Assembly: GCA_021158465.1 (NCBI GenBank)
Contig: JAGGUN010000035.1
Coordinates: 5,669 to 69,668, forward strand
Length of the DNA: 64,000 nt
DNA from: a bacterium
GTDB taxonomy: Bacteria; UBP14; UBA6098; 4484-93
Direction of reading: 5' to 3'
This document shows, one piece after another, positions 1 through 62,081 of the stretch (positions are counted from its first letter, which is position 1; each line of letters starts with the position of its first letter). Position numbers and translations under genes: made by a program. The notes under the pieces are model-generated. The model worked only from the letters and a program-made list of their open reading frames with translations. It was not told the origin of the DNA and searched no databases.

Positions 1-146
1 GCCTCATTGCTGGATTGGGAGAATCTTCCTGCTGGCTCATACAGTGTAATCTGGAATGCTGATGGGATGCCGTCGGGCTTCTACTTCATAAGCCTCCGGA
101 GTGAGGCAGGGACAGGGAAAACAATGAAGGTCGTCTTCCTGAAGTA
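1..146 (+). CDS. 3' end of an upstream gene; encodes a T9SS (Por_Secre_tail-type) C-terminal sorting domain
   Basis: Frame 1 translates to ASLLDWENLPAGSYSVIWNADGMPSGFYFISLRSEAGTGKTMKVVFLK*. This matches the C-termini of the cargo proteins at 25571, 30845 and 37448. The gene is truncated by the window edge. Confidence 0.6.
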
Positions 147-164
147 GGCATTTCCCATCCAAAA

Positions 165-200
165 TAGGGGGAGACAAGGCTCCCCCTATCTTCTCTTTAT
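165..200 (+). terminator. Rho-independent terminator after the upstream cargo gene
   Basis: Hairpin AGGGGGAG-ACAAGG-CTCCCCCT at 166-187, followed by the T-rich tract ATCTTCTCTTTAT. Confidence 0.5.
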
Positions 201-213
201 AGCAAGAAAACTG

Positions 214-241
214 TTGATTTTCTTATCTTTTACCTTATAAT
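214..241 (+). promoter_or_regulatory. Putative sigma-70 promoter of ppdK (-35 TTGATT, 16-nt spacer, -10 TATAAT)
   Basis: TTGATT at 214-219 and TATAAT at 236-241. A GAGGGAGG ribosome-binding site lies at about 255-262 and the ATG at 269. Confidence 0.4.
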
Positions 242-268
242 TAAAGGTCTAAACCGAGGGAGGAAAAG

Positions 269-2953: not shown

Positions 2954-2976
2954 CCCGAACTTAGAAAGGATAGGCA

Positions 2977-4068
2977 ATGGACAGAATTGAAAAACTACTA
3001 AAGGAGATCACAGAGATACCGGGACCGTCTGGGTTTGAGATGAAGGTAGCGGATTTTGTTGTCAGCAGGATGGAGGGGTACTACGACGAGCTTGTGCGCG
3101 ACGGTCTGGGTTCTGTCATCCTGAAGAAGTGTGGCACATCCGATTCACCGAGGGTTATGATTGCTGGGCATATGGACGAGGTTGGCTTTATGGTCAAGGG
3201 GATTACCAAGCAAGGGTTTATCAAATTCAATCCGCTCGGTGGATGGTGGAGCCACACCTTGCTTGGACAGAGGGTGAAGATTATCACATCCGATGGGAAA
3301 GAGATACTCGGTGTGGTCGGTTCGAAGCCGCCTCATGCCCTTCAGCCTGATGAGAGGAAGAAGGTGATAGAGCTTGACCAGCTTTACATCGATATAGGGG
3401 TATCGGAGGCTGACCCGAAGCTGCCGGAGAAGGTGGGGATAAAGGTGGGAGATCCGATTGTTCCTCTCTCCGATTTCCAGATTATGGCGGATAAGAAGGT
3501 TTATCTTGCCAAGGCGTGGGATGATAGGATTGGGGTGGCTGTGATGATGGAGGTGATTAGATCCCTTAAGGGCAAGGAGCATCCCAATGTTGTCTTCGGT
3601 GTTGGAACTGTCCAGGAGGAGGTGGGGCTTCGTGGTGCAACAACTGCTGCTTATACTGTGGAGCCGGACATCGCCATCGCCGTCGATGTGACTCTTTGTA
3701 ATGATACCCCAGGTATGCCTGATGCTGAGTATGCCGAGAAGATGGGCAAGGGACCATCTATCTCTGTTATGGATGGCTCGGTCATATCCAACCCATTCTT
3801 CAAGGAGCTCATTGTCGAGACGGCTGAGGAGTTGAAGATACCGTATCAGATGGGCTCGCTCACAAAAGGCGGAACGGATTCTGGAAGGATACATATCTCG
3901 AAACAGGGTGTCCCGTCAAACACGCTTTCTATTCCGACGAGATATATCCATTCCCACAATAGCATACTCCACAGGGACGATTTCGATAACCTTGTGAAGC
4001 TCATAGTCGGGGTTATTATGAAGCTCGATAAGGATACGGTTGAGAGGATTAGAACAAAGAGGAGATGA
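2977..4068 (+). CDS. M42 family metallo-aminopeptidase (FrvX/CelM-like)
   Basis: 363 aa. Contains HMDEVGF and EEVGLRGA motifs typical of M42 glutamyl aminopeptidase / endoglucanase-like peptidases. Its stop overlaps the tldD start in an ATGA. Confidence 0.85.
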   Translation: MDRIEKLLKEITEIPGPSGFEMKVADFVVSRMEGYYDELVRDGLGSVILKKCGTSDSPRVMIAGHMDEVGFMVKGITKQGFIKFNPLGGWWSHTLLGQRVKIITSDGKEILGVVGSKPPHALQPDERKKVIELDQLYIDIGVSEADPKLPEKVGIKVGDPIVPLSDFQIMADKKVYLAKAWDDRIGVAVMMEVIRSLKGKEHPNVVFGVGTVQEEVGLRGATTAAYTVEPDIAIAVDVTLCNDTPGMPDAEYAEKMGKGPSISVMDGSVISNPFFKELIVETAEELKIPYQMGSLTKGGTDSGRIHISKQGVPSNTLSIPTRYIHSHNSILHRDDFDNLVKLIVGVIMKLDKDTVERIRTKRR

Positions 4069-5441
4069 GGATGAAGGATAGGATAAGAGAAGCGCTCTCG
4101 AAGGTGAAGGATGCCTTTGTAGAGGTTAGGTTTGAGCAGAAGGAGTCCAGTCGGGTGGTATTCCGTGGGAAGGTGCTTGAATCGCTAACGGTTACCATCG
4201 ATGGAGGGGGATTTGTCAGAGCTCTTGTCCCGAACAAGGGCTGGGGAATTGTAACCTTCAACAATATGGAGGAGCTGGATAAAAGGATTGAGCAGGCAAT
4301 CTCTTGCTCGAGGATAGTTGTTCCTGATGAGCCTATAAAGCTCTCGGATGTTGAGCCTGCTGTTGTTGATATTCCTGCTGTTCTCAAGAGTGATTTCAGA
4401 GGGGTTCTTCTGAGCGAGAAGAAGAAGCTTATCGAGGGATACAACGATATCTTGCTCGGGTACGATAAGCGGATCATCAACACCGCCTCTTTCTATGTAG
4501 ATGGGTTCACGAAGTGCTGGTATGCCAACACAAACGGGGCTTGCATTTACAAGGAGCGCGCTGATACGGTTGTGGCAATCACGGCGATAGCCTCCGACGG
4601 GAAAACTGTTCAACAAGCCCATGATTCCTGGGCGTCGCGCACCGACTATAGTGAGATGCTGGGGCGAGAGAAGGAGGTCGAGGATGTGGCACGGTTGTCC
4701 ATCGAGATACTTGAGGCAAAGAGTATAGAGGGTGGGAGGTATACCGTGATCCTCGACCCGAGGTTGGCTGGAGTGTTTATCCACGAGGCGTTCGGGCATC
4801 TCTCTGAGGCAGACTTCGTATACGAGAATCCGAAGGCTCAGGAGATGATGGTCATCGGCAGAAGGTTCGGACCAGATTTCCTCAATGTCGCCGAGGACGG
4901 TTCCATACCGGACCTCAGAGGGAGCATATACTACGATGACGAGGGGACAAGGTGCAAGAAGAACTACCTCATAAAGAACGGCATTCTTGTTGGTAGGCTT
5001 CATTCGAGGGAAACGGCTGGCAGGATGGGGGAAGCCACAACAGGGAACGCACGAGCCCAGGATTATGCTCACCCTCCGATTGTCAGAATGACAAATACCT
5101 TCATCGAGAATGGCGAGACTGCTGTGGATGATATGTTCTCCGACATAGAGCTGGGGGTATACGCGGTGGATGCATACGGTGGGCAGACGATGCTTGAGAA
5201 CTTCTCCTTCTCCGCTGGGTATGCGTATATGATTCGGAACGGTAAGAGAGCGGAGATGGTGAGGGATGTTGTCTTGCAGGGTAACCTGTTCCATACGCTT
5301 GCCAATATTGAAGCAGTGGGTAATGATTTCCAGTGGTCAAGGGGTGGAGGTTCTTGTGGAAAAGGAGGACAATCTGTGCCGGTCGGAATGGGAAGCCCTC
5401 ACATAAGGATCAAGGATGTCTTGATAGGGGGGAAACGATGA
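4065..5441 (+). CDS. tldD: TldD family metalloprotease
   Basis: 458 aa. HEAFGHLSEAD zinc-binding motif, a GxC-rich C-terminus and TldD-like length. Confidence 0.85.
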   Translation: MRMKDRIREALSKVKDAFVEVRFEQKESSRVVFRGKVLESLTVTIDGGGFVRALVPNKGWGIVTFNNMEELDKRIEQAISCSRIVVPDEPIKLSDVEPAVVDIPAVLKSDFRGVLLSEKKKLIEGYNDILLGYDKRIINTASFYVDGFTKCWYANTNGACIYKERADTVVAITAIASDGKTVQQAHDSWASRTDYSEMLGREKEVEDVARLSIEILEAKSIEGGRYTVILDPRLAGVFIHEAFGHLSEADFVYENPKAQEMMVIGRRFGPDFLNVAEDGSIPDLRGSIYYDDEGTRCKKNYLIKNGILVGRLHSRETAGRMGEATTGNARAQDYAHPPIVRMTNTFIENGETAVDDMFSDIELGVYAVDAYGGQTMLENFSFSAGYAYMIRNGKRAEMVRDVVLQGNLFHTLANIEAVGNDFQWSRGGGSCGKGGQSVPVGMGSPHIRIKDVLIGGKR

Positions 5442-6745
5442 AAATACTCGATAAGGTCAAGCAGTTCACTGACAGGTTTGAGCTCTACGAATTGGCTGAG
5501 GAGTCTTACAATGTCTCTTTTAAGGGGTGGAAACTGAACGAGTCCTGTATAAGTCAGGAAGCTGGAAAATCTGTTAGACTGATAGTTGATGGCAGGATTG
5601 GGTTTGCTGGTGCTAAGGGGGTGTTCGACGAGGAGAAGCTTGTGGAGAATGCGAGGGAATCTGCGAGGTTTGGTGATGAGGTTACGCTTGAGTTCCCGAA
5701 GGAAGCTGGCTCGGCGGATGTTGTGGTCTGGGATGATAAACTGGCACAGCTCTCTCTCGAGGAGATGATGAGGGTAGGGAAGTCCGCTATGGAGCGGTTT
5801 GAGGACCTGAAAGGTAGCTGTGATTTCGAGCTCTCTCTCTCTAAGTCTATCATTCATGAGAGGATAATAAACTCCTCTGGGTTGGATGTGTCGAAGAAGA
5901 AAACGGTTTTTTCCTTTGGCTTTGAGTTGAGAAGAGTGAGGGAAAACGATATTCTGTCGCTTTGGGAACAAGAATCGACCAGTGTATATCCTGATGATAT
6001 AGCCTCGCTTATGAGCATCAAGGAGAAGAAGCTCCGTGAGAGGCTTGCACTTGCTGATAACCTATTGAGTGTCCCGAGGGGGAATATTCCTGTTGTGCTC
6101 AGTCCGAGGGGTGTTTTGGTTTTCCTCGTTCCACTCCTTTCTGGGATAAACGGAAAGAACATCTATACGAGGGTTTCGCCAGTGTGGAACAAGAAAGGGA
6201 AGCTCCTTTTTGACCCAAAGCTTTCTGTCGTAAACGATGGGATTATCTCTGGCAAGCCTTCTTCCGATACATACGATGATGAAGGTCTTCCGAAGAGGAG
6301 GACAAGCATTATAAGGAATGGAGTACTTGAGAATTTCGTTTTTGATCTGCTTTCTGCTGCCCGTGCGGACGAGCTCTCCACAGCTTCTGCCCGAAGGGGT
6401 GTCTTTTCCCAACCGTACCCCGACACCGATAACATCGTTATCGAGCCTGGGGATGTTTCCTACGAGGATATGCTCAAGGGTATAAAAGAGGGGATTTTGA
6501 TTGAGGATGTTCTCGGACTGGGACAAGGGAATGTGCTATCGGGAGACTTTTCTAACCCTGTTGGGCTCGCTTTTAAGATAGAGAACGGCGAGCTTGTCGG
6601 AAGGGTTAAGGATGCAAGTGTTGCTGGGAACATCTATGATAATTTCACCGCCATCGAGGCTATCTCTTCGGAGCAGGAGTGGGGGTATCCCTCTACCTTA
6701 GCACCCTATATGCGTCTTGATACCCTCTCTGTGGTCGGGAAATAG
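5438..6745 (+). CDS. pmbA: PmbA/TldE family protein, the non-catalytic partner of TldD
   Basis: TldD/PmbA fold without an HExxxH motif. The ORF-track start at 5333 is rejected: ATG 5438 (MKILDK) overlaps the tldD stop in an ATGA, and the 35 codons upstream have no homology. Confidence 0.8.
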   Translation: MKILDKVKQFTDRFELYELAEESYNVSFKGWKLNESCISQEAGKSVRLIVDGRIGFAGAKGVFDEEKLVENARESARFGDEVTLEFPKEAGSADVVVWDDKLAQLSLEEMMRVGKSAMERFEDLKGSCDFELSLSKSIIHERIINSSGLDVSKKKTVFSFGFELRRVRENDILSLWEQESTSVYPDDIASLMSIKEKKLRERLALADNLLSVPRGNIPVVLSPRGVLVFLVPLLSGINGKNIYTRVSPVWNKKGKLLFDPKLSVVNDGIISGKPSSDTYDDEGLPKRRTSIIRNGVLENFVFDLLSAARADELSTASARRGVFSQPYPDTDNIVIEPGDVSYEDMLKGIKEGILIEDVLGLGQGNVLSGDFSNPVGLAFKIENGELVGRVKDASVAGNIYDNFTAIEAISSEQEWGYPSTLAPYMRLDTLSVVGK

Positions 6746-6751
6746 CCCCGG

Positions 6752-7384
6752 TTAGCTTTTGGGTGGTTTACCCATTCTCTTTATAGCGTGCCACACTTTT
6801 ACTGCCTTGGAGCGCAGCACAGGTAGGTCTCCGTTGTTCTTGATGACAAAGTTTACCCTTCTTTTGAGGATGCTGGCGAACTCCTTGTCGAAGCCCTCAT
6901 TCTGAACGGATATTCTTGCTTCGATGTCCGAGCGGGAGTACCCACGCTCGAGTAATCTGTTTGTCCTCTGCCAGGTCGGGGCATCCACGAGGATGAGATA
7001 GTCTAGGAGTTCCATAATATCCTCCCACTTAGGCAGGAGTGCTGCGTCGATGACTGCGAGACCGGGGAAGCGGTGCGCCTCGAGGTTTGAGAGCTCCTCC
7101 TTTATCACTCGCCGGATGTAGGGATGGGTAATCTCTTCGAGATACTTGCGAGCCTCATCATCATGGAATACTATCTCTGCTATCTTCTCGGTTGATATAC
7201 TACCGTCTTCTTCCAGTATCTCATCCCCGAACCGCTCGACCAGCTGCGACTTCGTATCGGGTTTCTCGAGAGCCTCTTTACCTATCCTGTCGGCATCCAG
7301 GAGCTGGGCCCCAAGGTCCTTGAAGGTGGCTGCCACTGTGCTTTTTCCTGTCCCTATCTTTCCTGTTATTCCGACGACTATCAT
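6752..7384 (-). CDS. coaE: dephospho-CoA kinase
   Basis: 210 aa. MIVVGITGKIGTGKST P-loop and typical CoaE length. Confidence 0.9.
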   Translation of the reverse strand: MIVVGITGKIGTGKSTVAATFKDLGAQLLDADRIGKEALEKPDTKSQLVERFGDEILEEDGSISTEKIAEIVFHDDEARKYLEEITHPYIRRVIKEELSNLEAHRFPGLAVIDAALLPKWEDIMELLDYLILVDAPTWQRTNRLLERGYSRSDIEARISVQNEGFDKEFASILKRRVNFVIKNNGDLPVLRSKAVKVWHAIKRMGKPPKS

Positions 7385-7395
7385 ATCTTTCTCTC

Positions 7396-10300
7396 TTATC
7401 TGATGAGGGTGATTGTCCCGTTACAGACTATCTCCCCTTCAACCTCTATAGCATATATGTATAACCCTTCTGGGACTGGTTTATTATGTTTGTCGCGTCC
7501 GTTCCAGCAGCGGTCAAGGAAGTTTGAGAACCCTGTCTGAGGCGGAACGGTGCATTCCCAAATAAGCATGTTACGGAGGTTATACACCCTGATCCTCCCC
7601 TCTTTACTGAACATAAACGGGTAGCTGAAAACCACAAATTCGTTGTAGCCATCGCCGTTTGGCGAGAACGGGTTGGGGTGAACCAGGCAAGATACCCTCG
7701 GTTCGATGGTGAAGAACCAGAAGTACTCATCGTTGTTTGGGTCGCAGTAGTCGGGGGTATCGTACACCGAGAGCTGGACTTCCACTGTGTCCCCAGAACC
7801 GAAGCTCACGCCGACAGCGGGAGGGTTGAATATCAGAAGACCACCAAGCGAATCGCTCGTTGGTTGGAAGTCGAAATCCGGATAGTGATATTCCCTGCCA
7901 GCCACATGAAGCACAAACTCCCCGACATCGGCGCCTGACATAAGGTCGTATACATATATCTCTATTCTCTGCTGATCGCTTCTGACCATCATCTCTGGTG
8001 TGGGAATTCGCATCTCCGCGTAGGGCGGAGTGAAGTCCGTATAGAACTGCCAGCAGACAGGAGCCCCTGTGAGCGGATTGCCAAGATTGTCGTCGGCATG
8101 GGTGAGACAGACCGAGATTGTCTCGTTGTCTGCGAATCCACCATCGGGATGGTAGATTAAGAGAGTATCTCCTATGAATGTTATCTGTGCATCTCCCACC
8201 CTAAATGTCGCACCGTTTACTGTAAGGACAACGGTTTCCGGGTTTACCCCGTCAGGGTCTCTCAGCACCACAGCTATCGACTCATCGATGCAGGCTGTGA
8301 ATGTCTCATTCAAAGGTCTTATAACCGTTGCAACGGGTCCCCCAGGGGAGATTATGAACGAGTATATGGAGTCTAGGATGTTTGGACTGCAATAGTATGT
8401 TGTATCGAGAGTGTGTGGGTTGATATAGATTGTGTCGGGAGAATCTTCTGCCTGAACCTGAACCACAACCTCTGTTCCTCCGAACCACTCGACGCCAGCG
8501 GTGGCCGGGTCGAATGTTATGGTGTCACCTGATATACTGACCCCAGGGTCGTAGAGATGATAGGTTATTCCTCCTATTGTCAGGGTTACCGCTGATGTGT
8601 CGACGCCTGAGACAGAATCAGAGAGGACAAACCGTATTACCGGCTGAGTAGTTGATACGGTCTCGGCGGGGGCGGGCGAGGCATCGGTTATGTAAGGCGG
8701 CTCTATGTCTACAACGAACGACCAGCACAGGGGAGCTCCTGTGAGTGGATTGCCAAGGTTGTCCTCAGCTTCGATAAGGCAGACATCTACTGTCTCAGCC
8801 TCACCAAATGGCGGCTCAGGATGGAATACGAGTATGCTGTCATCTATAAAATCAAGCTCATCGTCAGATATTGTAAGATCTGTTCCTCTGACCTGAAGGA
8901 TTATCGTTGACTCATCCACACCGTTCGGATCGACAATCGAGACGGCGACCGATTCGTCGGGGCACGAGGAGATTGCTCCATCGAACGGCCTGAGAATAGT
9001 CGGGATAGGTCCTCCGGGAGAGATATAGAACGCCCAGCAGGAGTCGAGGACATTCGGGTCACAATAGTCGGGTGTATCCTCGGAGTATATGCAAACAGGT
9101 ATGGTGTCGCCTCCGACAAACGATGTTCCAACAACAGCCGGGTCAAAACAGATTGTTTCACCATCCCAGCTGATCCCTGCGTCGCCTATGTGGTAAGGAT
9201 GTCCTGCAACGGTGAGTGTGATGCCCGCCTCATTAATCCCTGACAGGGAATCCGTTATCTGAACACAGATGATAGGCTCCCTCTCATCGATATAGCTTCC
9301 AGGCAGAGGCGATTGTATGAGTATCACGGGTGGAGTAAGGTCCATTACAAAGCTCCAGGAGACAACGGATGTCAGATGATTACCGAGCGAGTCGTCTGCT
9401 GCAATGAGTGCAACACAGACGGTCTCTGCGTCGACAAACGGCGGGTTAGGTTCAAAGCGAAGGTCAGGGTATGTGAAATCGAGCTCGGGGTCTGTTACCT
9501 CGTAGTAGGCGGTATCTCGACATCCGTTTCTCGCCACCATAAGTCGAATGGTCTCGTCGATGACCGAGTCCTCGTCCTCAATAGTCATCTCGATATGCTC
9601 GGTATCCTCGCAGGCAGAATACGCCCCATCGAACGGGCGAATAATCGTCCCGATAGGTCCGCCCGGTGAGATATAGAATGTCCAGCAGCTATCGGAGCTA
9701 TTCGGGTCGCAGTAGTCGACAGAATCATACGCTACGACACACACATCAACCGTGTCGCCACCACCAAATACGATCCCTGCTATACCGCAGTCCACACTGA
9801 ACAGGGTATCTTCGATAAGCGATACCCCCGGCGAGTCGAGAGCGAATGTATCGCCGTTTATTAGGAAGAACAACGAGTCGAGGTTCAGCCAGGAGATTGT
9901 CTCGTGGAGTATTACCGAGATGATAGGTCTCGTCGACACAACAACATCCTCCGGTGCAGGTGAAAGATCGGTTATCTCGGGTGGAATCCTGTCCATAACA
10001 AATGTCCAGGAGAGAGGCGTCTCGAGCGGATTTCCGAGGATGTCGTCGGCACTCACAAGCTCGACTGTCACCGTCTCTGCATCTCCGAAATACGGATCCG
10101 GGATGAAGATGAGTACACTATCCTCGTAGGTTAGTCTGGGGTCGAGGATGCCTATTGTGTCGTCGTTGACGACGAGGACTATGGTAGAGTCATTGACACC
10201 TGTTGGATCTGTCAGGTATATTACGATATGTTCATCCTCGCAGGCAGAATGTGCACCGTCGAACGGTCGAACGATGGTCGCAACAGGACCGCCCGGCTCG

Positions 10301-13300
10301 ATATAGAATGTCCAGCAGCTATCGAGTAAGTTCGGTCCGCAGTAGTCAGGGGTATCATAGGCAGAAAGACATACATCGACTGTGTCTCCTCCTGTGAATA
10401 GAACACCTGCTGTCGTGGGGTCCCACACAAGAGCTGAATCTGTTAATGTGAGTGATGGGTCGGATAGTGTGTAGTCAGTTCCGTTAATTGTCAATATAAT
10501 TCCTGTTATATCCAGTCCGGAGAGGTCATCCCATAGGTTCATCGAGATGGTTGGCGTTCTTGTGGCGACAACATCGCCGGGAGGTGGTGTAATATTCCAT
10601 ACTCGAGGCGGTGTCGTGTCCATCACAAAGCTCCAGCAGACAGGAGACGGGTCAAGCGGATTACCGATAATGTCCTCAGCATCCGTCAGGCAGACATAGA
10701 TAGTCTCCGCATTGACGAAAGGCTCTGTCGGATAGTAGATCAGGTTCTCTCCATCGAATGAGAAGCCGGAGGTTGTATAGTCGATAAATGTGGTATCGGT
10801 CATATCGGTCGAACGCAACACCCACATCCGGATGGATGATGTCACGACGCCGTCCTCGTCGGATACTATCATCTCGATGTGCTCCGTGTCAATGCAGGCG
10901 GAGTATGCTCCATCGAACGGACGAACGATGGTAGCAACGGGACCACCCGGCTCGATATGGAATGTCCAGCAGCTGTCGAGATGGTTTGCAGGAAGGCAAA
11001 TATCTGGTGAATCATCCGCTCGAATGCAGATTCTCACGCTGTCTCCGCCTGGGACATAAAGCCCGATAGAGTCTGCCCAGATGCAGAAGTGCGGAAAAGT
11101 TCCTGACAATCCTGGGGAGCCGGGGTAAAGAACAATTGTGTCATTCAGAACAACCTCTATTGTTGTTTCGTCAACGCCAGATAGATTGTCTGTCAAGTTG
11201 AAGCAGAGAACGGGTGTTGGCGTTGAGACGGTGTCGCCAGGACCGATTGTTGCATCAGAGACGACAGGCGGCGATAGGTCGACCCAGAAATCCCATGCAA
11301 GTGGTGTCTGAAGTGGGTTGCCGAGATTGTCGTCCGCTCGAACGAGCTCTACCTCGACCAGCTGGGAATCTAGCCATGCCCAGCCAGCCTCGTATGGATA
11401 GAAATAAAGTGTATCGCCGGAGAATCTGATTCCTAAATCATCCAGATGGAATGTCGAGCCGTTGATGATAACCTCGAGCGTCGTCGAGTCGACCCCGACA
11501 TCGTCATCGGAAAGGGCGATAATTATTGCCTGGCTGTCACAGGCAGCAATCTGACCAGGTAGAGGGGTAACTATCTCAGCAACCGGTCCCCTCAGATGCA
11601 CAAAGAAACGCCAGCAACTATCGAGTGTGTTCGGCCCGCAGTAGTCGGGGGAATCATCTGCCGTTACGCATACATCCACCGTATCCCAGTCGTTCCAGTA
11701 GATACCGAGAAGCTCTGGGTCGAATGTTATGCTGTCACCCCAGACTACTCCAGGACTTCCCGGCGTGAGAACAATTGTATCGTCGATTGTGATTGTAACC
11801 GACAAGGAATCCAATCCGGATATGGAATCTGCGATATGGAACGAGATGATGGCAAGAGAATCGTTTATGAGTGTGTCAGGGGATGGGAGTTCGTTCCAGA
11901 TAACGGGTGGTGTCAGGTCGATGAGGAACCGCCAGCACAAGGGAGAACCCATCGGGTTGCCGAGGCTGTCTCGAGCATCCACAAGACAGACATAAACCGT
12001 CTCGCCATCTGTCCAATACTCACTCGGAATGAAGATGAGGGTGTCGTTGACAAAATCGAGCTCCCACGATGCAACTGTGAATGTGTCGTCCCCGACGGTG
12101 AAGATTATACTTGCCGGGTCGACCCCATCCGGGTCGATGATCGTCATAAAAAGGACCTGCTCCGTATCGACACAGGCAACGAAGCTCTCCGGCATATACT
12201 GGATAATGGTCGGGCGAGGCCCAGAAAGCGATACAACAAAGCTGAAGCAGAATTCCTCTGCTACATTCGGCTCGCAATATCCGGGTGTCGGAGAGTCCTG
12301 CGCATTGTGCACACAGACTACCACCGTGTCGCTATCTGCGAATACAAAACCAGCCTCTTCTGGATGCACAACGAGGTTCTCTCCGTCCCAGTCGACCCCC
12401 ACATCCCCTATGTGGAATATGAGCGTGTCGTTTATCGTTATGTAGACCGAATCAGTGGAAAGCCCTGAGACAGAGTCTACAATACTTACTCCTATATCCG
12501 GCGTTGCATCCGGGACGATAGCACCGTCCGGTGGGAAGTTGCCATATATAGCGGGTGGGTGTGTGTCCACGAGGAAGCTCCAGGAAAGCGGGGTATCGGG
12601 CGAGATATTCCCCCAGACATCGGCGAGTGAATCGAGCGAAACAAGCACTACTTCGCTGTCCGAGAAGAAGCCGGCTGGCGGTTGGAATATAATGAGTGTA
12701 TCCCCATCGAGTGTGAGATAGGGGCTGCTGATGGTGTATATAGTTCCGTTCACATTCAGTACGATTGATGATGAGTCTATCCCGGAAGCGTCGTAGACAC
12801 GGATGATAATCTCCTGGTCATCGCAGGCGGATATAATGTCTGGCTCCGGTCGGACAATCTCGGCTGTCGGACCGATGAAGTTCACTGTGAAGCTCCAGCA
12901 GTATGGTTCGATCCTGTTGGAATCGCAGTAGTCGGGGGTATCCCATGCCTGCTGCACACAGACGGTCACTGTCTCACCGTCGGCGAAGGTTATGCCGTTG
13001 CGGACTGTCTCACAGATGTATTCCCCTGTTGTCGGGTCAAGCACAAATACGCTGTCCGAGAGCGTGAATGAGAGTGTGTCGTTTATCGTGAAGACAACGG
13101 ATGGCTCGTAAAGCCCGGATATAGAATCGAAGATGCTGATATGTATAACAGGGTTTGGTGTGGTGACATTCGTATCTGCTGGGAACTCGCCCCAGATATC
13201 GGGTGGGTTAAGGTCAACGAGGAAGCACCAGGTCAGCGGGCAGTCGTCGGATGGGGTGTGATAGATGTCCTCTACATTGTTCACCGTTACGCAGACAGTA

Positions 13301-15528
13301 TCCCCATTGTGCCAGGTGCCGGTGGGCGGCGTTATCGTTAGGATCGAATCATCATGGAAGGATACCCACCTCGGGTCGACCGTAAACGGCTCACCGTTCA
13401 CCGTTATGGAGAAATCGATGCTGGATTCATCTATCGGCGCGGCGACCGGATGGATGAACAGTTCGATATACTGGTCATCGCATGCTGTTATGGAGTCGGG
13501 TTGCGGGATAACTATCTCGAGGGCAGGACCTGCAAGTGCAACATAGAATGTCCAGCAGAAGCTCGTGTCGTTCGGAGCGCAATAGTCATAGGTAGGCGAG
13601 TCCCAGGCATGAAGAATGCATACCTCCACTGTATCGCCATTGGAAAAGCTTACACCTGTTATCTCGATATGCATCCCATCGAATGTGAAGGAGTATCCGC
13701 TTATAACTGTTCCGTTCACCGACACCTGGATGTTGGAATCGACGATCGAGGATGGGTCGAGCCCGGAGATCGCATCGAATATATCAACGCCGATGACCGG
13801 TGTCGGTGTATGAACGACGGTATCCATAGGTGGGTAAGCGTTGTCGAATATAGGTGGTTCAATGTCTACCTGGAAGTTGCAGGTAACGATGTTTGCTACG
13901 CAGCCTGAGTCATCCTCTGCACTGATGAGAGAGAATGTGACCCAGGAGCCGTTTGTCCAAGGGGTGGAGGGGATAAAATGTAGTTCGGGTGGGCTCCAGG
14001 TGAGCTGTGGGTCGGATGTTGTGTAGTTTATCCCGTTCACCTGAAGGATTATGCTCGACTCGATAATAGGAGCCATTCCCGGGCTGATGTTTATTATTAT
14101 GTCCTGGTATTCGCAGGAGGTTATTCCGCCGCAGGGGTCGGGACGAACCACCTCCGCCACAGGTGGAGACCCTTCGCAGTAAGGGATGTCGAAGCAGTAG
14201 TCTATCGAGTTGCCGTCGATATCAGGCGATGTTGTCGTCACATCGATGTGAATGCAGGTGTTTGTTCCCATACAGTCGCGGTTCAGCTCAAAACGCCAGG
14301 AAGCGCTCCCGACAGATGGGTCCAGGCAGAATGGGTCCTCCGAGGAACACAGGTCTCTTGGATCTGTATACTGCGGATTAGCTCCAGAGACGAGCGTCAG
14401 GCAGCTCGCATCATAGGTTATTGTCGCCTGGACATTGTAAGCCGTCTCATCATCGAACGGCCAGAGGGTGTAATATGTATTGCGGACGAGGAGCGTAACA
14501 TCGATGGGATTTGGAGACAGCTCCCCGCAGCGAGCGCAGCTTATCATTATCGGGTTGAGGTTCAGCTCGAGTTCACCCTCGCTCGTTATCTCCGCACCGA
14601 GACCATAGTATGTCGCCTGTCGGAGAGTTCCACCTGGGGGAATGGAAACAGGATACCACCACAGGAGGACTGCGGAATCACCGTATGTTCCGAAGGTCGG
14701 TGTATAGTCCCAGACAACATTATAATAGGTGGGCCAGGAACCGAGGCAGATCCTGTCTGGTATCGTTGATTCAGGACCCAATATGTCACCCTGTGCTACC
14801 ATACCTGAGAGGTCATCATTCTCCCATGCTCGCCAGTAGGAGGGTATGTCTGGAGCGAGGAACTCCTGCTCGTGGTCCTCGAAGCCATAGTATGTTGAAA
14901 TCCTTGTCGCATCGTTCCCGTTTATCATCGTATCGAACTCTATCAGGAGCCCTACATTGTGCGATACTGTTCCGGTGTTCTCCATAAAATATTCGTAGAG
15001 GATAGTTGCTGAGCCAGGACCGGATATCTGGCGGGGGGAGAGTTTCTGTGTTATCCGTATGTCCCCTGCCTGCCAGACCGTCCAGATGGTGTCTCCAACA
15101 GAATAGGGAGGAGTTGTGAGTGTAGGGACGAATGTCCCTGTAAGCCCTCGGATGTTGTAGATCACCCCATCGATATTGAAGGCGACCCAGGAGCTCCATG
15201 GGCGCGGTGCCCCAGGGTCGACACCACCAACATCGTGACGGAAATCGTACAGGAGATCCCTGCCGGTTAGGTCTCCTTCAACGAAGTCGCCTATCCAGGT
15301 AGAGCCGCCGCCGGTGCCATCTGCATCGTCAGCTGTTGCCACACATACCCTCACATTCTGGGTAGGGTCACCACCGTTATAGTTGCTCTGGATACACACG
15401 CAAGGGGTCATAATATCCTTCGAAGAGGAAGGATGTCTTGCCGTTTTCCACGAACCACCCTCCTGTGCGAACAGGGACCAAGAGATCATTAACCCCAGAA
15501 ACGCCAAAGCCAGCCACGATCTTTTCAT
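7396..15528 (-). CDS. giant secreted repeat protein (2710 aa): signal peptide, unique N-terminal region of about 450 aa, about 10-11 tandem two-domain repeats, and a T9SS type B C-terminal sorting domain
   Basis: N-terminal signal peptide MKRSWLALAFLGLMISWSLFAQ. Recurring motif ...DTVxVCxxAxDxPDYCxPNxLDSCWTFYIxPGGPxAxIVRPxDGAxSAC.D..I... at a period of about 210 aa. C-terminus NPFSPNGDGYNEF...WNGRD...GLYIYAIEV, matching the gliding-motility / TIGR04131-type CTD. Confidence 0.85.
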   Translation of the reverse strand: MKRSWLALAFLGLMISWSLFAQEGGSWKTARHPSSSKDIMTPCVCIQSNYNGGDPTQNVRVCVATADDADGTGGGSTWIGDFVEGDLTGRDLLYDFRHDVGGVDPGAPRPWSSWVAFNIDGVIYNIRGLTGTFVPTLTTPPYSVGDTIWTVWQAGDIRITQKLSPRQISGPGSATILYEYFMENTGTVSHNVGLLIEFDTMINGNDATRISTYYGFEDHEQEFLAPDIPSYWRAWENDDLSGMVAQGDILGPESTIPDRICLGSWPTYYNVVWDYTPTFGTYGDSAVLLWWYPVSIPPGGTLRQATYYGLGAEITSEGELELNLNPIMISCARCGELSPNPIDVTLLVRNTYYTLWPFDDETAYNVQATITYDASCLTLVSGANPQYTDPRDLCSSEDPFCLDPSVGSASWRFELNRDCMGTNTCIHIDVTTTSPDIDGNSIDYCFDIPYCEGSPPVAEVVRPDPCGGITSCEYQDIIINISPGMAPIIESSIILQVNGINYTTSDPQLTWSPPELHFIPSTPWTNGSWVTFSLISAEDDSGCVANIVTCNFQVDIEPPIFDNAYPPMDTVVHTPTPVIGVDIFDAISGLDPSSIVDSNIQVSVNGTVISGYSFTFDGMHIEITGVSFSNGDTVEVCILHAWDSPTYDYCAPNDTSFCWTFYVALAGPALEIVIPQPDSITACDDQYIELFIHPVAAPIDESSIDFSITVNGEPFTVDPRWVSFHDDSILTITPPTGTWHNGDTVCVTVNNVEDIYHTPSDDCPLTWCFLVDLNPPDIWGEFPADTNVTTPNPVIHISIFDSISGLYEPSVVFTINDTLSFTLSDSVFVLDPTTGEYICETVRNGITFADGETVTVCVQQAWDTPDYCDSNRIEPYCWSFTVNFIGPTAEIVRPEPDIISACDDQEIIIRVYDASGIDSSSIVLNVNGTIYTISSPYLTLDGDTLIIFQPPAGFFSDSEVVLVSLDSLADVWGNISPDTPLSWSFLVDTHPPAIYGNFPPDGAIVPDATPDIGVSIVDSVSGLSTDSVYITINDTLIFHIGDVGVDWDGENLVVHPEEAGFVFADSDTVVVCVHNAQDSPTPGYCEPNVAEEFCFSFVVSLSGPRPTIIQYMPESFVACVDTEQVLFMTIIDPDGVDPASIIFTVGDDTFTVASWELDFVNDTLIFIPSEYWTDGETVYVCLVDARDSLGNPMGSPLCWRFLIDLTPPVIWNELPSPDTLINDSLAIISFHIADSISGLDSLSVTITIDDTIVLTPGSPGVVWGDSITFDPELLGIYWNDWDTVDVCVTADDSPDYCGPNTLDSCWRFFVHLRGPVAEIVTPLPGQIAACDSQAIIIALSDDDVGVDSTTLEVIINGSTFHLDDLGIRFSGDTLYFYPYEAGWAWLDSQLVEVELVRADDNLGNPLQTPLAWDFWVDLSPPVVSDATIGPGDTVSTPTPVLCFNLTDNLSGVDETTIEVVLNDTIVLYPGSPGLSGTFPHFCIWADSIGLYVPGGDSVRICIRADDSPDICLPANHLDSCWTFHIEPGGPVATIVRPFDGAYSACIDTEHIEMIVSDEDGVVTSSIRMWVLRSTDMTDTTFIDYTTSGFSFDGENLIYYPTEPFVNAETIYVCLTDAEDIIGNPLDPSPVCWSFVMDTTPPRVWNITPPPGDVVATRTPTISMNLWDDLSGLDITGIILTINGTDYTLSDPSLTLTDSALVWDPTTAGVLFTGGDTVDVCLSAYDTPDYCGPNLLDSCWTFYIEPGGPVATIVRPFDGAHSACEDEHIVIYLTDPTGVNDSTIVLVVNDDTIGILDPRLTYEDSVLIFIPDPYFGDAETVTVELVSADDILGNPLETPLSWTFVMDRIPPEITDLSPAPEDVVVSTRPIISVILHETISWLNLDSLFFLINGDTFALDSPGVSLIEDTLFSVDCGIAGIVFGGGDTVDVCVVAYDSVDYCDPNSSDSCWTFYISPGGPIGTIIRPFDGAYSACEDTEHIEMTIEDEDSVIDETIRLMVARNGCRDTAYYEVTDPELDFTYPDLRFEPNPPFVDAETVCVALIAADDSLGNHLTSVVSWSFVMDLTPPVILIQSPLPGSYIDEREPIICVQITDSLSGINEAGITLTVAGHPYHIGDAGISWDGETICFDPAVVGTSFVGGDTIPVCIYSEDTPDYCDPNVLDSCWAFYISPGGPIPTILRPFDGAISSCPDESVAVSIVDPNGVDESTIILQVRGTDLTISDDELDFIDDSILVFHPEPPFGEAETVDVCLIEAEDNLGNPLTGAPLCWSFVVDIEPPYITDASPAPAETVSTTQPVIRFVLSDSVSGVDTSAVTLTIGGITYHLYDPGVSISGDTITFDPATAGVEWFGGTEVVVQVQAEDSPDTIYINPHTLDTTYYCSPNILDSIYSFIISPGGPVATVIRPLNETFTACIDESIAVVLRDPDGVNPETVVLTVNGATFRVGDAQITFIGDTLLIYHPDGGFADNETISVCLTHADDNLGNPLTGAPVCWQFYTDFTPPYAEMRIPTPEMMVRSDQQRIEIYVYDLMSGADVGEFVLHVAGREYHYPDFDFQPTSDSLGGLLIFNPPAVGVSFGSGDTVEVQLSVYDTPDYCDPNNDEYFWFFTIEPRVSCLVHPNPFSPNGDGYNEFVVFSYPFMFSKEGRIRVYNLRNMLIWECTVPPQTGFSNFLDRCWNGRDKHNKPVPEGLYIYAIEVEGEIVCNGTITLIR
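8000..13600 (-). repeat. intragenic tandem DNA repeats (unit about 0.63-0.65 kb) encoding the two-domain repeat of the giant protein
   Basis: Near-identical stretches such as GGACCGCCCGGCTCGATATAGAATGTCCAGCAGCTATCG at about 9660-9695 and 10290-10325, with a variant at about 10940-10980. Coordinates of the repeat block are approximate. Confidence 0.7.
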
Positions 15529-15529
15529 C

Positions 15530-17245
15530 TTATTTTATCCCTCCCGAAACTCCTTTTATTGGTAAAAAGACCACAAATTCGCTTCCTGAGCCTGCCTTGC
15601 TGTGAACCTCTATAAGCCCCTTATGCTGGGTTGCTATCCTCTGTGCAATTGAAAGCCCAAGTCCTGTCCCCTTTGGTTTTGTCGAGAAGAACGGCTGGAA
15701 TATCTTCAGCAGGTTCTTCTCGCTTATACCCACACCGTTATCCTTTATGGATATCCCGACAAGCGTTATGTTCCTGTCGAGGAGCCCTTCTCGCTGTCCA
15801 TCAAGCGATATCCGTATCTCTGGTTTCTTTTCGTTCTTTACAGCCTCGACTGCATTTATCAGGAGGTTCAGAAACAGTTGCTTGAGGTGGTCCTCGCGCC
15901 CATATACGCTGAACTCCTTGCCCTCGAACTCATTTATCACTGTTATTCTGTCGTCCCAGCAGGAGTTTCTTTTCAATAGCTCTAATGTTTCTCTAAAAAG
16001 CTTGGAGATGTCTGTTTTCACGAACGGTAGCTGAGAGAGAGAGACATCCTCGATTCGAGCAAAGTTCAAGAACTCATCGAGTATCCCCTTCAGGCGATCG
16101 GTTTCCTTAACTATTAGGTCGAACAGTTCTCGTTTTTCGCTCTCTGTGGGGAAGAGTTCCTTGTTTAGAAGCTCGACCGAGCCACGGATCGAAGCTAACG
16201 GGTTTCTTATCTCGTGTGCTAGACCGGCAGACATCTCCCCGATAAGTGCCATCTTGTCCACATTCTTGAGATACTCGTCTACAAGCTTCTCCTGTGTTAT
16301 GTCCTCGAAGACCGTTATCACCCCACGAACTATGCCGGCTACCTTAAGGGTGCTTGTCACAAGGAGGAGCGGGATCTCCTTCCCCTCATCCGATGTTATA
16401 ATTATCTCACCACGAGAGTTCTCGTTTGTAGAACCGGAGAGTGCTCGCTCCAGCGTTTCTCGGAATGTGCGAAGCCGCTCTGGAAACACCTCTCGGAAAT
16501 CTTTATCCCTTACTTCCGACTTGTTGAGCCCGAGTATCTTGCCTGCTGCCTCGTTGAAGTACTGTATCCTCCCAGTTGTATCCACCGTCACAAGCCCGTT
16601 GCGCATATACTCCAGTATCTCATCCGTGTCCATACGCGTCTGCATCAGCTGATAATAGAGGAGTTCGATCTCGTCGATGCGGGCTCGAAGCCTGTTGGAG
16701 ATATACCCAGCAAGGAGCGCAACTATGTAGAAGAAGCAGACATAGATATAGGTTAGATAAAAAAGGTACTCTGATTGGGAGTAATACGATGCGTGGAAGA
16801 AGCCTGGTCTAAAGGGGAGGATATTTTTTGCCTCTAAGAAGACAAGAACGACGAGTGATGCCGAGGCAAATGTAGTTATCAGCAGGGTTCCGCCCATCTC
16901 GAGGAAGAACGAGGTGCTTATTATGGTGAAGAACAGGAGTATTACAAAGGGGGAGTTTATCCCACCGGAGTAGTGAATGATAGCCAATTCGGTCAGGATT
17001 TCCACTACGGAGTGGATAGTGCAGAGGAATTTCAGGCTTACCTTCTTATGGGTGAACCGCCAGAGGGAGAGGGCAAGAAAGAAGCCGAGGGTTGTTATAC
17101 CGTACAGCAGCAGAAATTCGTATAGAAACTTCTCCGATGCGCCGAGGATAAAGGGAGCGGAGATGAAGATAAAAACGAATATAAACAACCTAAGGATTAA
17201 GAGCCAGTTGAGTCTCTTTTTTAGCTCTTCCTGCCTGGATTCCAT
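15530..17245 (-). CDS. PilS-like sensor histidine kinase (6 TM, PAS, HisKA, HATPase)
   Basis: 571 aa. Six hydrophobic helices at the N-terminus, a PAS-like region, H-box HEIRNPLASIRG and G-boxes NGVGI / GTGLGLSIA. No response regulator in the window. Confidence 0.85.
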   Translation of the reverse strand: MESRQEELKKRLNWLLILRLFIFVFIFISAPFILGASEKFLYEFLLLYGITTLGFFLALSLWRFTHKKVSLKFLCTIHSVVEILTELAIIHYSGGINSPFVILLFFTIISTSFFLEMGGTLLITTFASASLVVLVFLEAKNILPFRPGFFHASYYSQSEYLFYLTYIYVCFFYIVALLAGYISNRLRARIDEIELLYYQLMQTRMDTDEILEYMRNGLVTVDTTGRIQYFNEAAGKILGLNKSEVRDKDFREVFPERLRTFRETLERALSGSTNENSRGEIIITSDEGKEIPLLLVTSTLKVAGIVRGVITVFEDITQEKLVDEYLKNVDKMALIGEMSAGLAHEIRNPLASIRGSVELLNKELFPTESEKRELFDLIVKETDRLKGILDEFLNFARIEDVSLSQLPFVKTDISKLFRETLELLKRNSCWDDRITVINEFEGKEFSVYGREDHLKQLFLNLLINAVEAVKNEKKPEIRISLDGQREGLLDRNITLVGISIKDNGVGISEKNLLKIFQPFFSTKPKGTGLGLSIAQRIATQHKGLIEVHSKAGSGSEFVVFLPIKGVSGGIK

Positions 17246-17253
17246 AACTTGAT

Positions 17254-18456
17254 TTAAGCCTTTATTTGACCTATGATATCAAACATAGGTAGATACATTG
17301 CTATCAAGAGCGCGCCAACTATCCCACCCAGAACTACAATTGTGATAGGCTCAATGAGGGACATAAGTGTGGTGACAGCTGCATCCACCTCCTCGTCGTA
17401 GAAGTCGGCGATTCGTGTCAGCATATCGTCTAAGTTACCTGTCTGTTCGCCGACAGCTATCATCTGCACGACCATTGGTGGAAACACCTTACTTTCCCTG
17501 AGAGGCGCAGTGATGGTTTCTCCCTCGGAGATACTCACCATAGAGCCGTGTATAGCCTTTTGGAGGACCACATTTCCGGCTGTTTTGGATGTGATGTTCA
17601 GCGCGTCGATGAGGTTGACACCGCTCGAGAGCAGGGTAGCTAAGGTTCTTGTAAAGCGGGCTATGGCGGTCTTACGGATGAGTGGACCGAATACTGGGAG
17701 CTTGAGTTTAGCAGAATCTATCCACCAGCGTCCTTGGCGTGTTCTCTGGAGTCCTGAGAAACCTAATATAATGCCGACAACAAAGAGGACGATCAGAATA
17801 GCATTATGTCTGAAGAAGCTGGAGATGCCGAGCACAATCAGGGTTGGTTTGGGGAGTTCAGCACCCAGCCCCTCGAACATGCCCGCAAAGACTGGGATAA
17901 TAAAGGTCAACATTGCCCAGGTTATAAGGATAGTAAATGCGAAGATTGCAGTCGGGTAGGCCATAGCTCCTTTAATCTTGCGCCTTATCGAATCCATCTT
18001 TTCCCTGAACTCGGCGAGTCGTTTCAGGATGACCTCGAGGGCACCACCTGCCTCACCTGCTTCTACCATATTCACATACAGGTCGTCGAACACCTTCTTG
18101 TGTTTTGCGAGGGCGCTGGATAGGGTTGAGCCGCCGGAGACATCCGCTTTGACCTGTGATATAACATTGGCGAGATACTTGTTCTCTGTCTGTTCTGCAA
18201 GGATTGTCAGGCATTGAACGATGGGAAGTCCTGCCTCTACCATTGTGGCGAATTGGCGAGTGAACCTCGATATGTCAACGCTGGAGATCCCTGTTCCGAA
18301 GCGGATATTTATCTCCTTCTGTTTCTTCTTTACAGAGGAGATGATGATCCGCTGCTTCCGCAGGAAGAGTTTAAGTTCCTCGGCGTTTTTGGCTTCCAGC
18401 TCCCCCGATATAGGAGCGCCAGTCAATGTCCTTCCCTGATATTCAAATACAGGCAT
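17254..18456 (-). CDS. pilC: type IV pilus assembly platform protein PilC (GspF family)
   Basis: 400 aa. Duplicated GspF domains, three TM segments and a typical PilC N-terminus. Confidence 0.9.
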   Translation of the reverse strand: MPVFEYQGRTLTGAPISGELEAKNAEELKLFLRKQRIIISSVKKKQKEINIRFGTGISSVDISRFTRQFATMVEAGLPIVQCLTILAEQTENKYLANVISQVKADVSGGSTLSSALAKHKKVFDDLYVNMVEAGEAGGALEVILKRLAEFREKMDSIRRKIKGAMAYPTAIFAFTILITWAMLTFIIPVFAGMFEGLGAELPKPTLIVLGISSFFRHNAILIVLFVVGIILGFSGLQRTRQGRWWIDSAKLKLPVFGPLIRKTAIARFTRTLATLLSSGVNLIDALNITSKTAGNVVLQKAIHGSMVSISEGETITAPLRESKVFPPMVVQMIAVGEQTGNLDDMLTRIADFYDEEVDAAVTTLMSLIEPITIVVLGGIVGALLIAMYLPMFDIIGQIKA

Positions 18457-18470
18457 AATCTTTCCTCCTA

Positions 18471-19553
18471 TTATGCTCCCCTACCAACTCTCTCCTTCCT
18501 CCGCATAATGAGGTCGTTGAGCTCTGCAGGGTCGGAAGAATGAGCATATGCCTCTTCCAGTGAGATTAGACCACGAAGGTAAAGGTCTGCTATGGACATA
18601 TTCATTGTCTGCATACCGTATTTTTGTCCAGCTTGCATAGTTGAGTATACCTGATGAATTTTATCCTCCCTTATCTGGGCTCTGATTGCTGGCGTAACAA
18701 TGAGTATCTCTGTCGCAACGATCCTTCCGCCGCCTATCATCGGGATAAGTTGCTGGGTGACGATTGCGCGGAGGACGAAGGAGAGCTGTACCCTTACCTG
18801 GGTCTGCTGGGCGGGTGGAAAGATATCTATAATTCGGTTTATTGTTTCTGCACAGGAATTGGTGTGGAGGGTTCCGAATGTTAAATGTCCTGTTTCGGCG
18901 ATAGTGAGGGCTGCCCTAATTGTTTCGAGGTCTCGCATCTCACCTATCATAACAACATCCGGGTCCTCACGCATTGCGTATTTGAGAGCTGAGTCGAATG
19001 ATTTGGTATCCGAATACACCTCGCGCTGGTTTACTATGGAGTTTTTGTGTTTGTGGACAAATTCTATCGGGTCCTCGACGGTGAGTATATGGACGTGTTT
19101 CTCCGTATTTATCTTATCGACGAGTGCTGCCAAGGTTGTGCTTTTACCTGTGCCGGTTGGACCGGTGATAAGGACGAGTCCTTTTGGGTAGTCAGTGAAG
19201 GAATTGATTATCTTGGGTAACCTCAGCTCTTCGATCCCCTTTATCACTGTTGGGACCCTGCGGAGAGCCATTGCAACGACTCCCTGCTGTAGGAATATGT
19301 TTGTCCGGAAGCGGCAGAGTCCTTCGATTCCGAATGAGAGGTCAATCTCCCAGTTCTCCTCGAACTTCTGTTTCTGTTTCTCGGTCATAATGCTGTAGGC
19401 AAGGCGCTTTGCTGTTTCTGGTGTTACAACCTCATATCTGCTTCTGACGAGCTTTCCATCTATTCTAAACATCGGGGGTGCGCCCGGGGTTATGTGTAGG
19501 TCACTTGCCTCTCTTTTCACAACCTCTGTAAGGAGTTCACGCATCGAAATCAT
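18471..19553 (-). CDS. pilT: twitching-motility retraction ATPase PilT
   Basis: 360 aa. LVLITGPTGTGKST Walker A and PilT-size secretion ATPase; N-terminus MISMRELL...SDLHIT. Confidence 0.9.
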   Translation of the reverse strand: MISMRELLTEVVKREASDLHITPGAPPMFRIDGKLVRSRYEVVTPETAKRLAYSIMTEKQKQKFEENWEIDLSFGIEGLCRFRTNIFLQQGVVAMALRRVPTVIKGIEELRLPKIINSFTDYPKGLVLITGPTGTGKSTTLAALVDKINTEKHVHILTVEDPIEFVHKHKNSIVNQREVYSDTKSFDSALKYAMREDPDVVMIGEMRDLETIRAALTIAETGHLTFGTLHTNSCAETINRIIDIFPPAQQTQVRVQLSFVLRAIVTQQLIPMIGGGRIVATEILIVTPAIRAQIREDKIHQVYSTMQAGQKYGMQTMNMSIADLYLRGLISLEEAYAHSSDPAELNDLIMRRKERVGRGA

Positions 19554-19569
19554 AGAACTGCCTCCTCAT

Positions 19570-21267: not shown

Positions 21268-21349
21268 CGTACCCCCTTGACAAGGAATACACTCATACCT
21301 GCTTCACTATCTATATAAATATACAACATTCTCTTTCAAAATTCAAATA
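21268..21349 (-). promoter_or_regulatory. putative promoter region upstream of pilB
   Basis: 82-nt AT-rich gap. The minus strand carries TTGAAT/TTGAAA and TATATT-like hexamers, but they cannot be resolved uniquely. Confidence 0.2.
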
Positions 21350-39328: not shown

Positions 39329-39393
39329 GACAAAAGAAACCTGTTGACAAGTCTGATTTTTTGCTTTATTTTTTCAAACTTTGAAACGCCTGG

Positions 39394-40686: not shown

Positions 40687-40688
40687 GG

Positions 40689-44167: not shown

Positions 44168-44180
44168 CAAAGGAGCAACG

Positions 44181-61927: not shown

Positions 61928-62030
61928 AAAAACTCCTTCGTTTGATAATCGAACTTTGAAGTTTAAAATATATACGAGGGAGTTTTTGTCAAGTAGTTTT
62001 TTGATTTTTTTGAGGAATACCAAAAATATC

Positions 62031-62058
62031 TTGACGGTATGATAAAAAACATTATATT
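62031..62058 (+). promoter_or_regulatory. putative sigma-70 promoter of the SRP RNA (TTGACG, 16-nt spacer, TATATT)
   Basis: TTGACG at 62031-62036 and TATATT at 62053-62058, about 25 nt upstream of the SRP RNA 5' helix. Confidence 0.4.
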
Positions 62059-62081
62059 CTGGAGAAATGTTCTTTGGAAAG

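Follow-up and report, generated by a model that had tools for sequence, protein, structure and literature searches.

In SasG and Aap of staphylococci, G5 and E modules alternate strictly to form a long, stiff stalk that projects an N-terminal adhesive domain; these modules fold as flat sheets of three strands, the proteins come from Gram-positive bacteria and are anchored by sortase, and SasG is built without an inter-module disulfide. RTX extenders (e.g., MpIBP RII, 4p99, and the LapA-like BIg arrays) and cadherin ectodomains extend terminal ligand-binding domains on linear arrays of ~100-aa immunoglobulin (Ig)-like modules; their repeats are homotypic and often nearly identical, Ca2+ stiffens them between domains, and the proteins are exported by a type I secretion system or are eukaryotic. 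SprB and CHU_large of the Bacteroidota are giant, repetitive, beta-rich surface proteins with a CHU_C/type-B end. Here we describe a giant secreted protein of 2710 aa, encoded at 7396-15528 on the minus strand (open reading frame (ORF) list and translation) of a 64,000-nucleotide stretch of contig JAGGUN010000035.1; this whole stretch is referred to below as the window.

The protein carries a long array of two Ig-like module types, termed A and B. Such alternation of two types within a stalk, which lowers the similarity of neighbours, recalls SasG and Aap, and these would be the nearest functional analogues; however, the fold and the phylum are different, and no G5 match was found in the Pfam scan. 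With SprB and CHU_large the protein shares its giant, repetitive, beta-rich character, its probable CHU_C/type-B end and the same kind of NCBI name, but it has no match to SprB repeats and no adjacent sprF/porP-like gene among the scanned ORFs of the window, and it belongs to a Zixibacteria-like host and has another repeat type. In contrast to the RTX and cadherin arrays, its array is heterotypic, old, apparently disulfide-stapled and presumably exported by the type IX secretion system (T9SS). We consider it reasonably likely that the protein is a T9SS-exported, C-terminally anchored fibrillar adhesin, whose exchangeable, probably glycan-binding head is carried by a stiff, ~80-90 nm stalk made of ten B-A pairs stapled by disulfides.

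Results

An alternating array of two module types

Residues 455-2611 (7696-14166, minus strand) split into 20 Ig-like modules of ~105 aa in the strict order B0, A1, B1...B9, A10, giving ten two-module units. For the segmentation, one unit picked by hand was searched against the protein with phmmer, and the modules were then delimited with a hidden Markov model (HMM); the array is further supported by alignments, AlphaFold2 (AF2) models and Foldseek. The two-module unit is ~215 aa long, the DNA repeats with a period of 630-654 nt, and in phmmer searches within the protein the copies match each other with E-values down to 1e-17 to 1e-32, far beyond chance. An earlier reading made from the sequence alone (the sequence-only reading) had counted about ten units of ~210 aa after a unique N-terminus of ~450 aa, which agrees with ten units starting at residue 455 after 454 non-repetitive residues.

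The consensus of type A is PPxI..P....V....P.I...L.D..SG.D..S.....NG......G....G..L.F.....G..F..GDTV.VC..A.D.PDYC.PN.LDSCW.F.I and that of type B is (P)GGP.A.IV.P.DG..SAC.D..I.....D..GV..STI.L.VNG......L.F..D.L.F.P...F.D.ETV.V.L..A.D.LGNPL..PL.W.F..D. "DSCW" lies in the F-G hairpin that closes module A, and "PGGP...SAC" opens module B. The motif quoted by the sequence-only reading is thus present in all its strings but was set in the wrong phase, as DSCW...PGGP...SAC straddles the end of A and the start of B, and what had been called the second half of the unit is the N-terminal part of A. Representative modules are A6 (aa 1639-1746; 10291-10614, minus strand), the first row of our alignment of 47 A sequences, and B6 (aa 1745-1847; 9988-10296, minus strand), which was scored against Pfam Big_5 (18.8 bits) and aligned with A by hhalign.

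Identity matrices gave 22-46% between A copies and 24-53% between B copies, and the longest DNA repeats, of 127-178 nt, are 63-74% identical. Compared with P0002, a homologue that is 44% identical overall, most modules are best matched by the module of equal rank in the array; because modules match by ordinal position, the array is older than the split from this homologue. The sequence-only reading had described near-identical C-proximal copies and a recent expansion, and these values contradict both. Adjacent modules are on average 32.9% identical, compared to 44.2% for the next-nearest modules, which are of the same type.

Six close relatives all contain (BA)n arrays, with n = 10, 10, 12, 18, 10 and 10, each running from an initial B to a final A directly ahead of the sorting domain. 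Perfect (BA)n arrays were seen in 78 of the 154 family proteins examined (n = 2-18), and most of the others deviate by a truncated start or by one module. These data show that strict alternation is a conserved feature of the family. To size the family, an HMM profile of A was searched exhaustively over 1.84 billion cluster representatives, with 3247 proteins matched at E<=1e-3, 1257 at E<=1e-10 and 372 at E<=1e-30; in public metagenomes, one cluster representative is 100% identical to the 2710-aa protein. Of the 150 clusters that score best among those 1257, about 100 show strict B-A alternation. The repeat family is real, large, widespread, mostly unannotated and only moderately novel.

Cysteine covariation at the module junctions

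The co-occurrence of cysteines was counted over 1129 A modules and 982 B modules. Two cysteines of module A, C82 (of VC) and C100 (of CW), are both present in 639 modules, both missing in 317 and discordant in 13, and the homologous pair of module B, C78 and C95, is present in 133, missing in 792 and discordant in 2. Mutual information places the register of the A hairpin at column pairs 82-100, 86-96 and 80-102. From these counts and this register we infer that an optional cross-strand disulfide, C82-C100, bridges the F-G hairpin of A, with a homologous counterpart in some B modules.

A third cysteine of A, C92 (of DYC), occurs in 92% of A modules, and C18 (of SAC) occurs in 89% of B modules. 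C92 and the C18 of the preceding B module are both present in 792 pairs, both missing in 41 and discordant in 10, an odds ratio (OR) of ~1500, and mutual information with average product correction ranks B18-A92 first among the inter-module pairs of the B-to-A junction. This junction also couples B14-17 with A89-92 and A31-32, and B71/B99 with A1/A31, whereas the A-to-B junction is dominated instead by A75/106/107 with B1/B31. Such a pattern is expected of Ig modules arranged head to tail, in which the C-terminal pole of one meets the N-terminal pole of the next and the A-B loop of B would face the F-G loop of A. The covariation suggests that, most likely, a disulfide from C18 of B (SAC) to C92 of the next A (DYC) staples each B-A pair. 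With regard to the proposal in the sequence-only reading of a two-module repeat of disulfide-stabilised beta-sandwiches, the sandwiches were recovered in AF2 models, and the disulfides are consistent with the covariation.

Alternatively, the conserved cysteines may not be bonded between modules, being free, metal-binding or otherwise paired, and their covariation may reflect shared array ancestry. C92 of A is in fact also coupled, more weakly, to the C18 of the following B (OR 42, mutual information rank 4), which shows that an array-wide state inflates the statistics. However, the informative discordant cases within arrays stand at 15 to 0 for B pairing with the next A; no inter-module pair has stronger mutual information than B18-A92, and the neighbouring positions B14-17 and A89-92 covary at the B-to-A junction only. 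The terminal modules of complete arrays, moreover, mostly retain their cysteines (65 of 76 first B modules and 58 of 73 last A modules), as pairing from B to A predicts. We therefore regard an absence of the staple as unlikely. The opposite phase of the disulfide, from A to the following B, is not expected to leave these terminal cysteines in place, and it was ruled out by the covariation, the terminal cysteines, the 15-to-0 cases and the mutual information together.

Relationship to described Ig-like families

The whole protein scores 73.5 bits against Pfam Big_5 (PF13205; E 2.7e-20, sequence cut-off 23.6), and PF13205 is listed in the precomputed annotation of P0001-P0005, where it is flagged as faint for P0003 and P0004. 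Taken singly, the best B modules reach 18.8 and 18.9 bits (E ~0.003), below the 23.6-bit cut-off but over profile positions 5-103 of 105, and single A modules give no Pfam match in a scan at E<=10. Among 47 A modules from six proteins, sub-threshold traces of Big_7 were seen in 5 and of Big_5 in 2 (best E 0.003); besides Big_5, the sub-threshold traces in single modules were of Big_7, Big_9 and Big_1 alone. No Pfam match to cadherin or cadherin-like, Big_2 or VCBS domains was obtained for the whole protein at E<=1 or for single modules at E<=10. No NCBIfam model matches the repeat, and searches of PDB sequences with the whole protein, the A profile and the B profile gave nothing below E 0.067.

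Compared by hhalign, the A and B profiles are homologous along their whole length (99.5%, E 1.8e-22, 97 columns), which makes the two module types paralogues. An AF2 model of B5-A6-B6-A7, made from a 27-row alignment, consists of four beta-sandwiches with a mean confidence (pLDDT) of 93.3. Searched against PDB with Foldseek, it retrieved tandem-Ig rods of titin, contactins, cadherins and desmocollins, the MpIBP extender 4p99, 6xi3 and SbsB. The lower-ranked matches of the A profile include homotypic arrays with strong Big_5 scores (P0111, 205.8 bits; P0140, 157; P0103, 148), and its alignments to those arrays tend to end at column ~88, before the cysteine-rich tail. Proteins with strict (BA)n arrays such as P0046, P0079 and P0097 have no Big_5 match at E<=1e-3 and no Pfam match across the repeat region.

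Because of the whole-protein score, the full-length alignment, the fold, the homology of A and B and the retrieval of Big_5 arrays by the A profile, we conclude that A and B form a divergent sub-family in the Big_5 branch that is largely missed by the Pfam model, and not a new fold. Both share with Big_5 an Ig-like beta-sandwich of ~105 residues, a start of the form 'D..PP.V...P..G' and a strand of the form 'D..S..I.L'. They differ in that A modules carry a 20-residue tail (D.PDYC.PN..DSCW.F.I) with three cysteines, which ordinary Big_5 arrays are without; in that canonical Big_5 arrays are homotypic, whereas the array of the giant protein alternates; and in that 45 of the 47 A modules have no Big_5 match and no single module reaches 23.6 bits. 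The D.PDYC.PN..DSCW tail is the signature specific to A.

The sequence-only reading had taken the repeat for an undescribed family, matching none of SprB, cadherin, Big or VCBS, and had named a confident match to a known adhesin repeat as what would argue otherwise. Its negative findings hold for SprB, cadherin, Big_2 and VCBS, the family is unnamed by annotation, and a single A module has no significant match in Pfam, NCBIfam or PDB sequences. The repeat is nevertheless kin to Big, as the Big_5 score of 73.5 bits against a cut-off of 23.6 is a confident match at the level of the protein, though not of the single domain.

The protein ends and the exchangeable head

In order, the protein consists of a signal peptide, a non-repetitive head of ~430 aa, the (B-A)x10 array and a CHU_C domain, with residues 1-454 comprising the signal peptide and the non-repetitive region. 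The putative Sec-type signal peptide (aa 1-21, MKRSWLALAFLGLMISWSLFA/QE; 15466-15528, minus strand) was read by eye from the translation by its basic n-region, hydrophobic core and A-x-A-like site. At the other end, residues 2613-2710 and the stop codon (7396-7692, minus strand) form a probable T9SS type-B sorting domain, matched by Pfam CHU_C with 36.4 bits for the isolated last 98 aa and 28.3 bits in the whole protein (cut-off 27). MCD6098315.1, which falls into one 90%-identity cluster with the giant protein, bears the NCBI name 'gliding motility-associated C-terminal domain-containing protein', a name that stems from the model of the C-terminal domain (CTD) alone.

Residues 22-454 have no Pfam match at E<=10. 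The head proper, residues 22-335 (14524-15465, minus strand), is assigned from AF2 and Foldseek, no Pfam model being available, and is followed by a second small beta-sandwich of the SPNPxDVxLxVxNT... type at residues 336-454 (14167-14523, minus strand), placed by AF2 and the head alignment. In the AF2 model of the head (pLDDT 81, predicted TM-score (pTM) 0.73), residues 321-426, which cover the small sandwich, are all-beta with pLDDT mostly 75-96 and are conserved in the head alignment. Foldseek matched the head to the N-terminal beta-supersandwich domains of GH116, GH94 phosphorylases, cyclic glucan synthase, OpgD, YidC P1 and aldose epimerases (E ~1e-6). The head is predicted on the basis of this model to have a galactose-mutarotase-like beta-supersandwich fold, and it is itself a candidate for a new domain family. 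An enzymatic head was rejected, as non-catalytic accessory domains of glycoside hydrolases (GH) and phosphorylases alone were matched and there was no GH match in Pfam.

Head homologues were found in about 30 fetched proteins, about 20 of which are (BA)n proteins. Others are a T9SS protein with different repeats (P0007), a Ruminococcus polymorphic toxin (P0008), Zixibacteria proteins containing a von Willebrand factor type A (VWA) domain, and an Anaerobium 'Ig domain-containing protein'. The motifs DTM.N.NDA...T, PDR, YGDSA and W..P..L.PG....TYYG are near-invariant among them. Conversely, VWA heads occur on the same stalk in P0006, in P0097 and in the second giant gene of the metagenome-assembled genome L002. 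In L002 two giant (BA)n genes lie in tandem (6023-14524 and 14534-23422), both ending in CHU_C, the first with a supersandwich head and the second with a VWA/integrin-beta-like head, an arrangement that looks like head swapping on a common stalk. Heads are thus exchangeable on the same stalk.

Genomic neighbourhood

The giant gene is 92% identical to a contig of candidate division Zixibacteria bacterium 4484_93, and the host is, judging from sequence, a Zixibacteria-type bacterium. Upstream on the same strand lie pilB, pilT, pilC and a PilS-like (6TM_PilS + PAS + HisKA) histidine kinase gene (15530-21267, minus strand), the last of which ends at 15530, one base before the start of the giant ORF at 15528; a dephospho-CoA kinase gene lies downstream. 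The order pilB-pilT-pilC-kinase-giant is kept in L002 (pil and kinase part at 247-6020), where the orthologue is 44% identical and is followed by the second (BA)n giant gene. Around P0003 (in L004) and P0004 (in L003) the neighbours are unrelated and the order is not kept, so that the pil linkage is a lineage-specific synteny; a pilus linkage of the family as a whole is ruled out by these two neighbourhoods.

Three other proteins of the window carry a T9SS CTD (25571-27889; 30845-35482, a C25 peptidase; and 37448-39328), and the T9SS cargo in the window includes an Omp28-like protein. The product of 25571-27889, a type-A CTD cargo of 772 aa, contains a single divergent A-like module at residues ~167-269 (27083-27391, minus strand). 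The A HMM matched its N-terminal half with 21.8 bits, and hhalign aligned the module with the A profile over 102 columns (95.2%, E 2.8e-8), compared to 38 columns (59.7%) with the B profile; the DSCW/DYC cysteines are missing at the A positions. One full-length A-like copy is therefore reused in this cargo, as the sequence-only reading had noticed.

The C25 protein (30845-35482, minus strand) is 1545 aa long and has FG-GAP repeats and a type-A T9SS sorting domain besides a gingipain/PorU-type peptidase domain with propeptide; possible identities are a secreted protease and a relative of the PorU sortase. The start of its gene is overlapped by a 408-aa ORF without a Pfam match (35467-36693, minus strand). 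A 545-aa ORF (21350-22987, minus strand) shows a weak Por_Secre_tail trace of 16.8 bits and overlaps the metG stop codon by 7 nt. Downstream of a tetratricopeptide repeat (TPR) protein, 40689-44167 (plus strand) encodes a Wza-like Poly_export/SLBB protein, a GNVR chain-length regulator and a GFO/IDH/MocA oxidoreductase, a polysaccharide export set that indicates capsule or exopolysaccharide production in the same organism. In regions with plus-strand genes (1-6000, 38000-46000 and 62000-64000) the GC skew ranges from +0.15 to +0.31, compared to ~0 to +0.1 in regions with minus-strand genes; it is not symmetric about zero, which suggests replication-strand skew over coding-strand skew of similar size.

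Discussion

As a fibrillar adhesin, the giant protein would be brought to the periplasm by its Sec signal peptide, fold oxidatively there, and be routed through the T9SS by its CHU_C/type-B sorting domain, which would also hold the C-terminus at the outer membrane. The physical unit would be B followed by A, stapled by the SAC-DYC disulfide, with an optional VC...SCW clamp on the F-G hairpin of A. Assuming ~4 nm per Ig module, twenty of them would give a stalk of ~80-90 nm that keeps the head away from the cell; the alternation of unlike neighbours together with the staples should make this stalk stiff and resistant to misfolding and proteolysis. The head, a beta-supersandwich and then a small beta-sandwich, probably binds a glycan, because its fold resembles carbohydrate-associated beta-supersandwiches.

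Several points weigh against this picture. TIGR04131, the NCBIfam model of the type-B CTD, reaches 17.7 bits, under its cut-off of 35, and among the scanned ORFs of the 64-kb window there is no T9SS core gene and no PorP/SprF-like partner gene. The evidence for the inter-module disulfide consists of covariation and topology, and shared ancestry of related sequences can inflate covariation. The head matches non-catalytic accessory domains with modest structural scores (TMq 0.28-0.42), and its ligand specificity is a guess. We found no paper on this repeat family in the literature, and nothing relevant for PF13205 or for type IX secretion in Zixibacteria.

Other functions can be proposed for a giant protein of this kind. 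It could be a surface-layer (S-layer) or envelope-lattice protein whose Ig modules cover the cell in the manner of SbsA/SbsB-type or HPI S-layers. Foldseek matches to SbsB (4aq1) and the Deinococcus HPI layer (8cka) point that way, as does the name SbsA Ig-like domain, under which Big_5 also appears in InterPro; those matches, however, rank 29th and 36th, after generic linear Ig rods. Array lengths of 2 to 18 pairs are unusual in lattice-forming proteins, and one stalk bearing differing heads (VWA or supersandwich) and a T9SS CTD follows the logic of a stalk-and-head adhesin, so a lattice role seems very unlikely to us. We attach equally little weight to a SprB-like mobile gliding adhesin, which the type-B sorting domain, the giant repetitive architecture and the NCBI name of MCD6098315.1 might suggest. 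The whole protein has no match to the SprB repeat (PF13573) in the Pfam scan at E<=1, no gld or spr genes are found among the scanned ORFs in 64 kb, and the NCBI name is a product of the CTD model; Zixibacteria are not known to glide, and no paper on gliding in them was found. Somewhat less improbable, but still doubtful, is a function tied to type IV pili, e.g., as a surface-attachment factor coordinated with the pilus and co-transcribed with pilB-pilT-pilC and the PilS-like kinase. The one-base spacing from the kinase gene, the pil genes upstream of it and the conserved order in L002 would fit such a role, but the unrelated neighbours of P0003 and P0004 make the linkage lineage-specific, and the protein bears a T9SS signal and not a pilin or type II secretion signal. 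A T9SS-exported stalk-and-head adhesin remains our preferred interpretation.

Beyond this one protein, we tentatively propose, at somewhat short of even confidence, that (B-A)n is an undescribed stalk design: an obligate heterotypic Ig di-module with a conserved B-to-A disulfide, used in many hundreds of giant T9SS proteins of uncultured bacteria with interchangeable heads, including an unannotated beta-supersandwich in common with a Firmicutes polymorphic toxin. What is new is the heterotypic B-A alternation, probably disulfide-stapled as far as the cysteine pattern tells; the fold, the secretion route and the general role are all of known kinds, and no current view is overturned.

In uncultured bacteria of the Fibrobacteres-Chlorobi-Bacteroidetes (FCB) group, few genes are as large and as poorly understood as those of giant Ig-repeat surface proteins, and present domain libraries leave most of the giant protein blank. 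A profile of the A/B sub-family would allow annotation of the repeats in more than a thousand clusters that are now named after their sorting domain only. If the inter-module disulfide is true, it would offer a compact principle for designing rods that are stiff and resist misfolding, namely to alternate two module types and staple them covalently, with relevance to 'periscope' and other stalk adhesins and to protein engineering.

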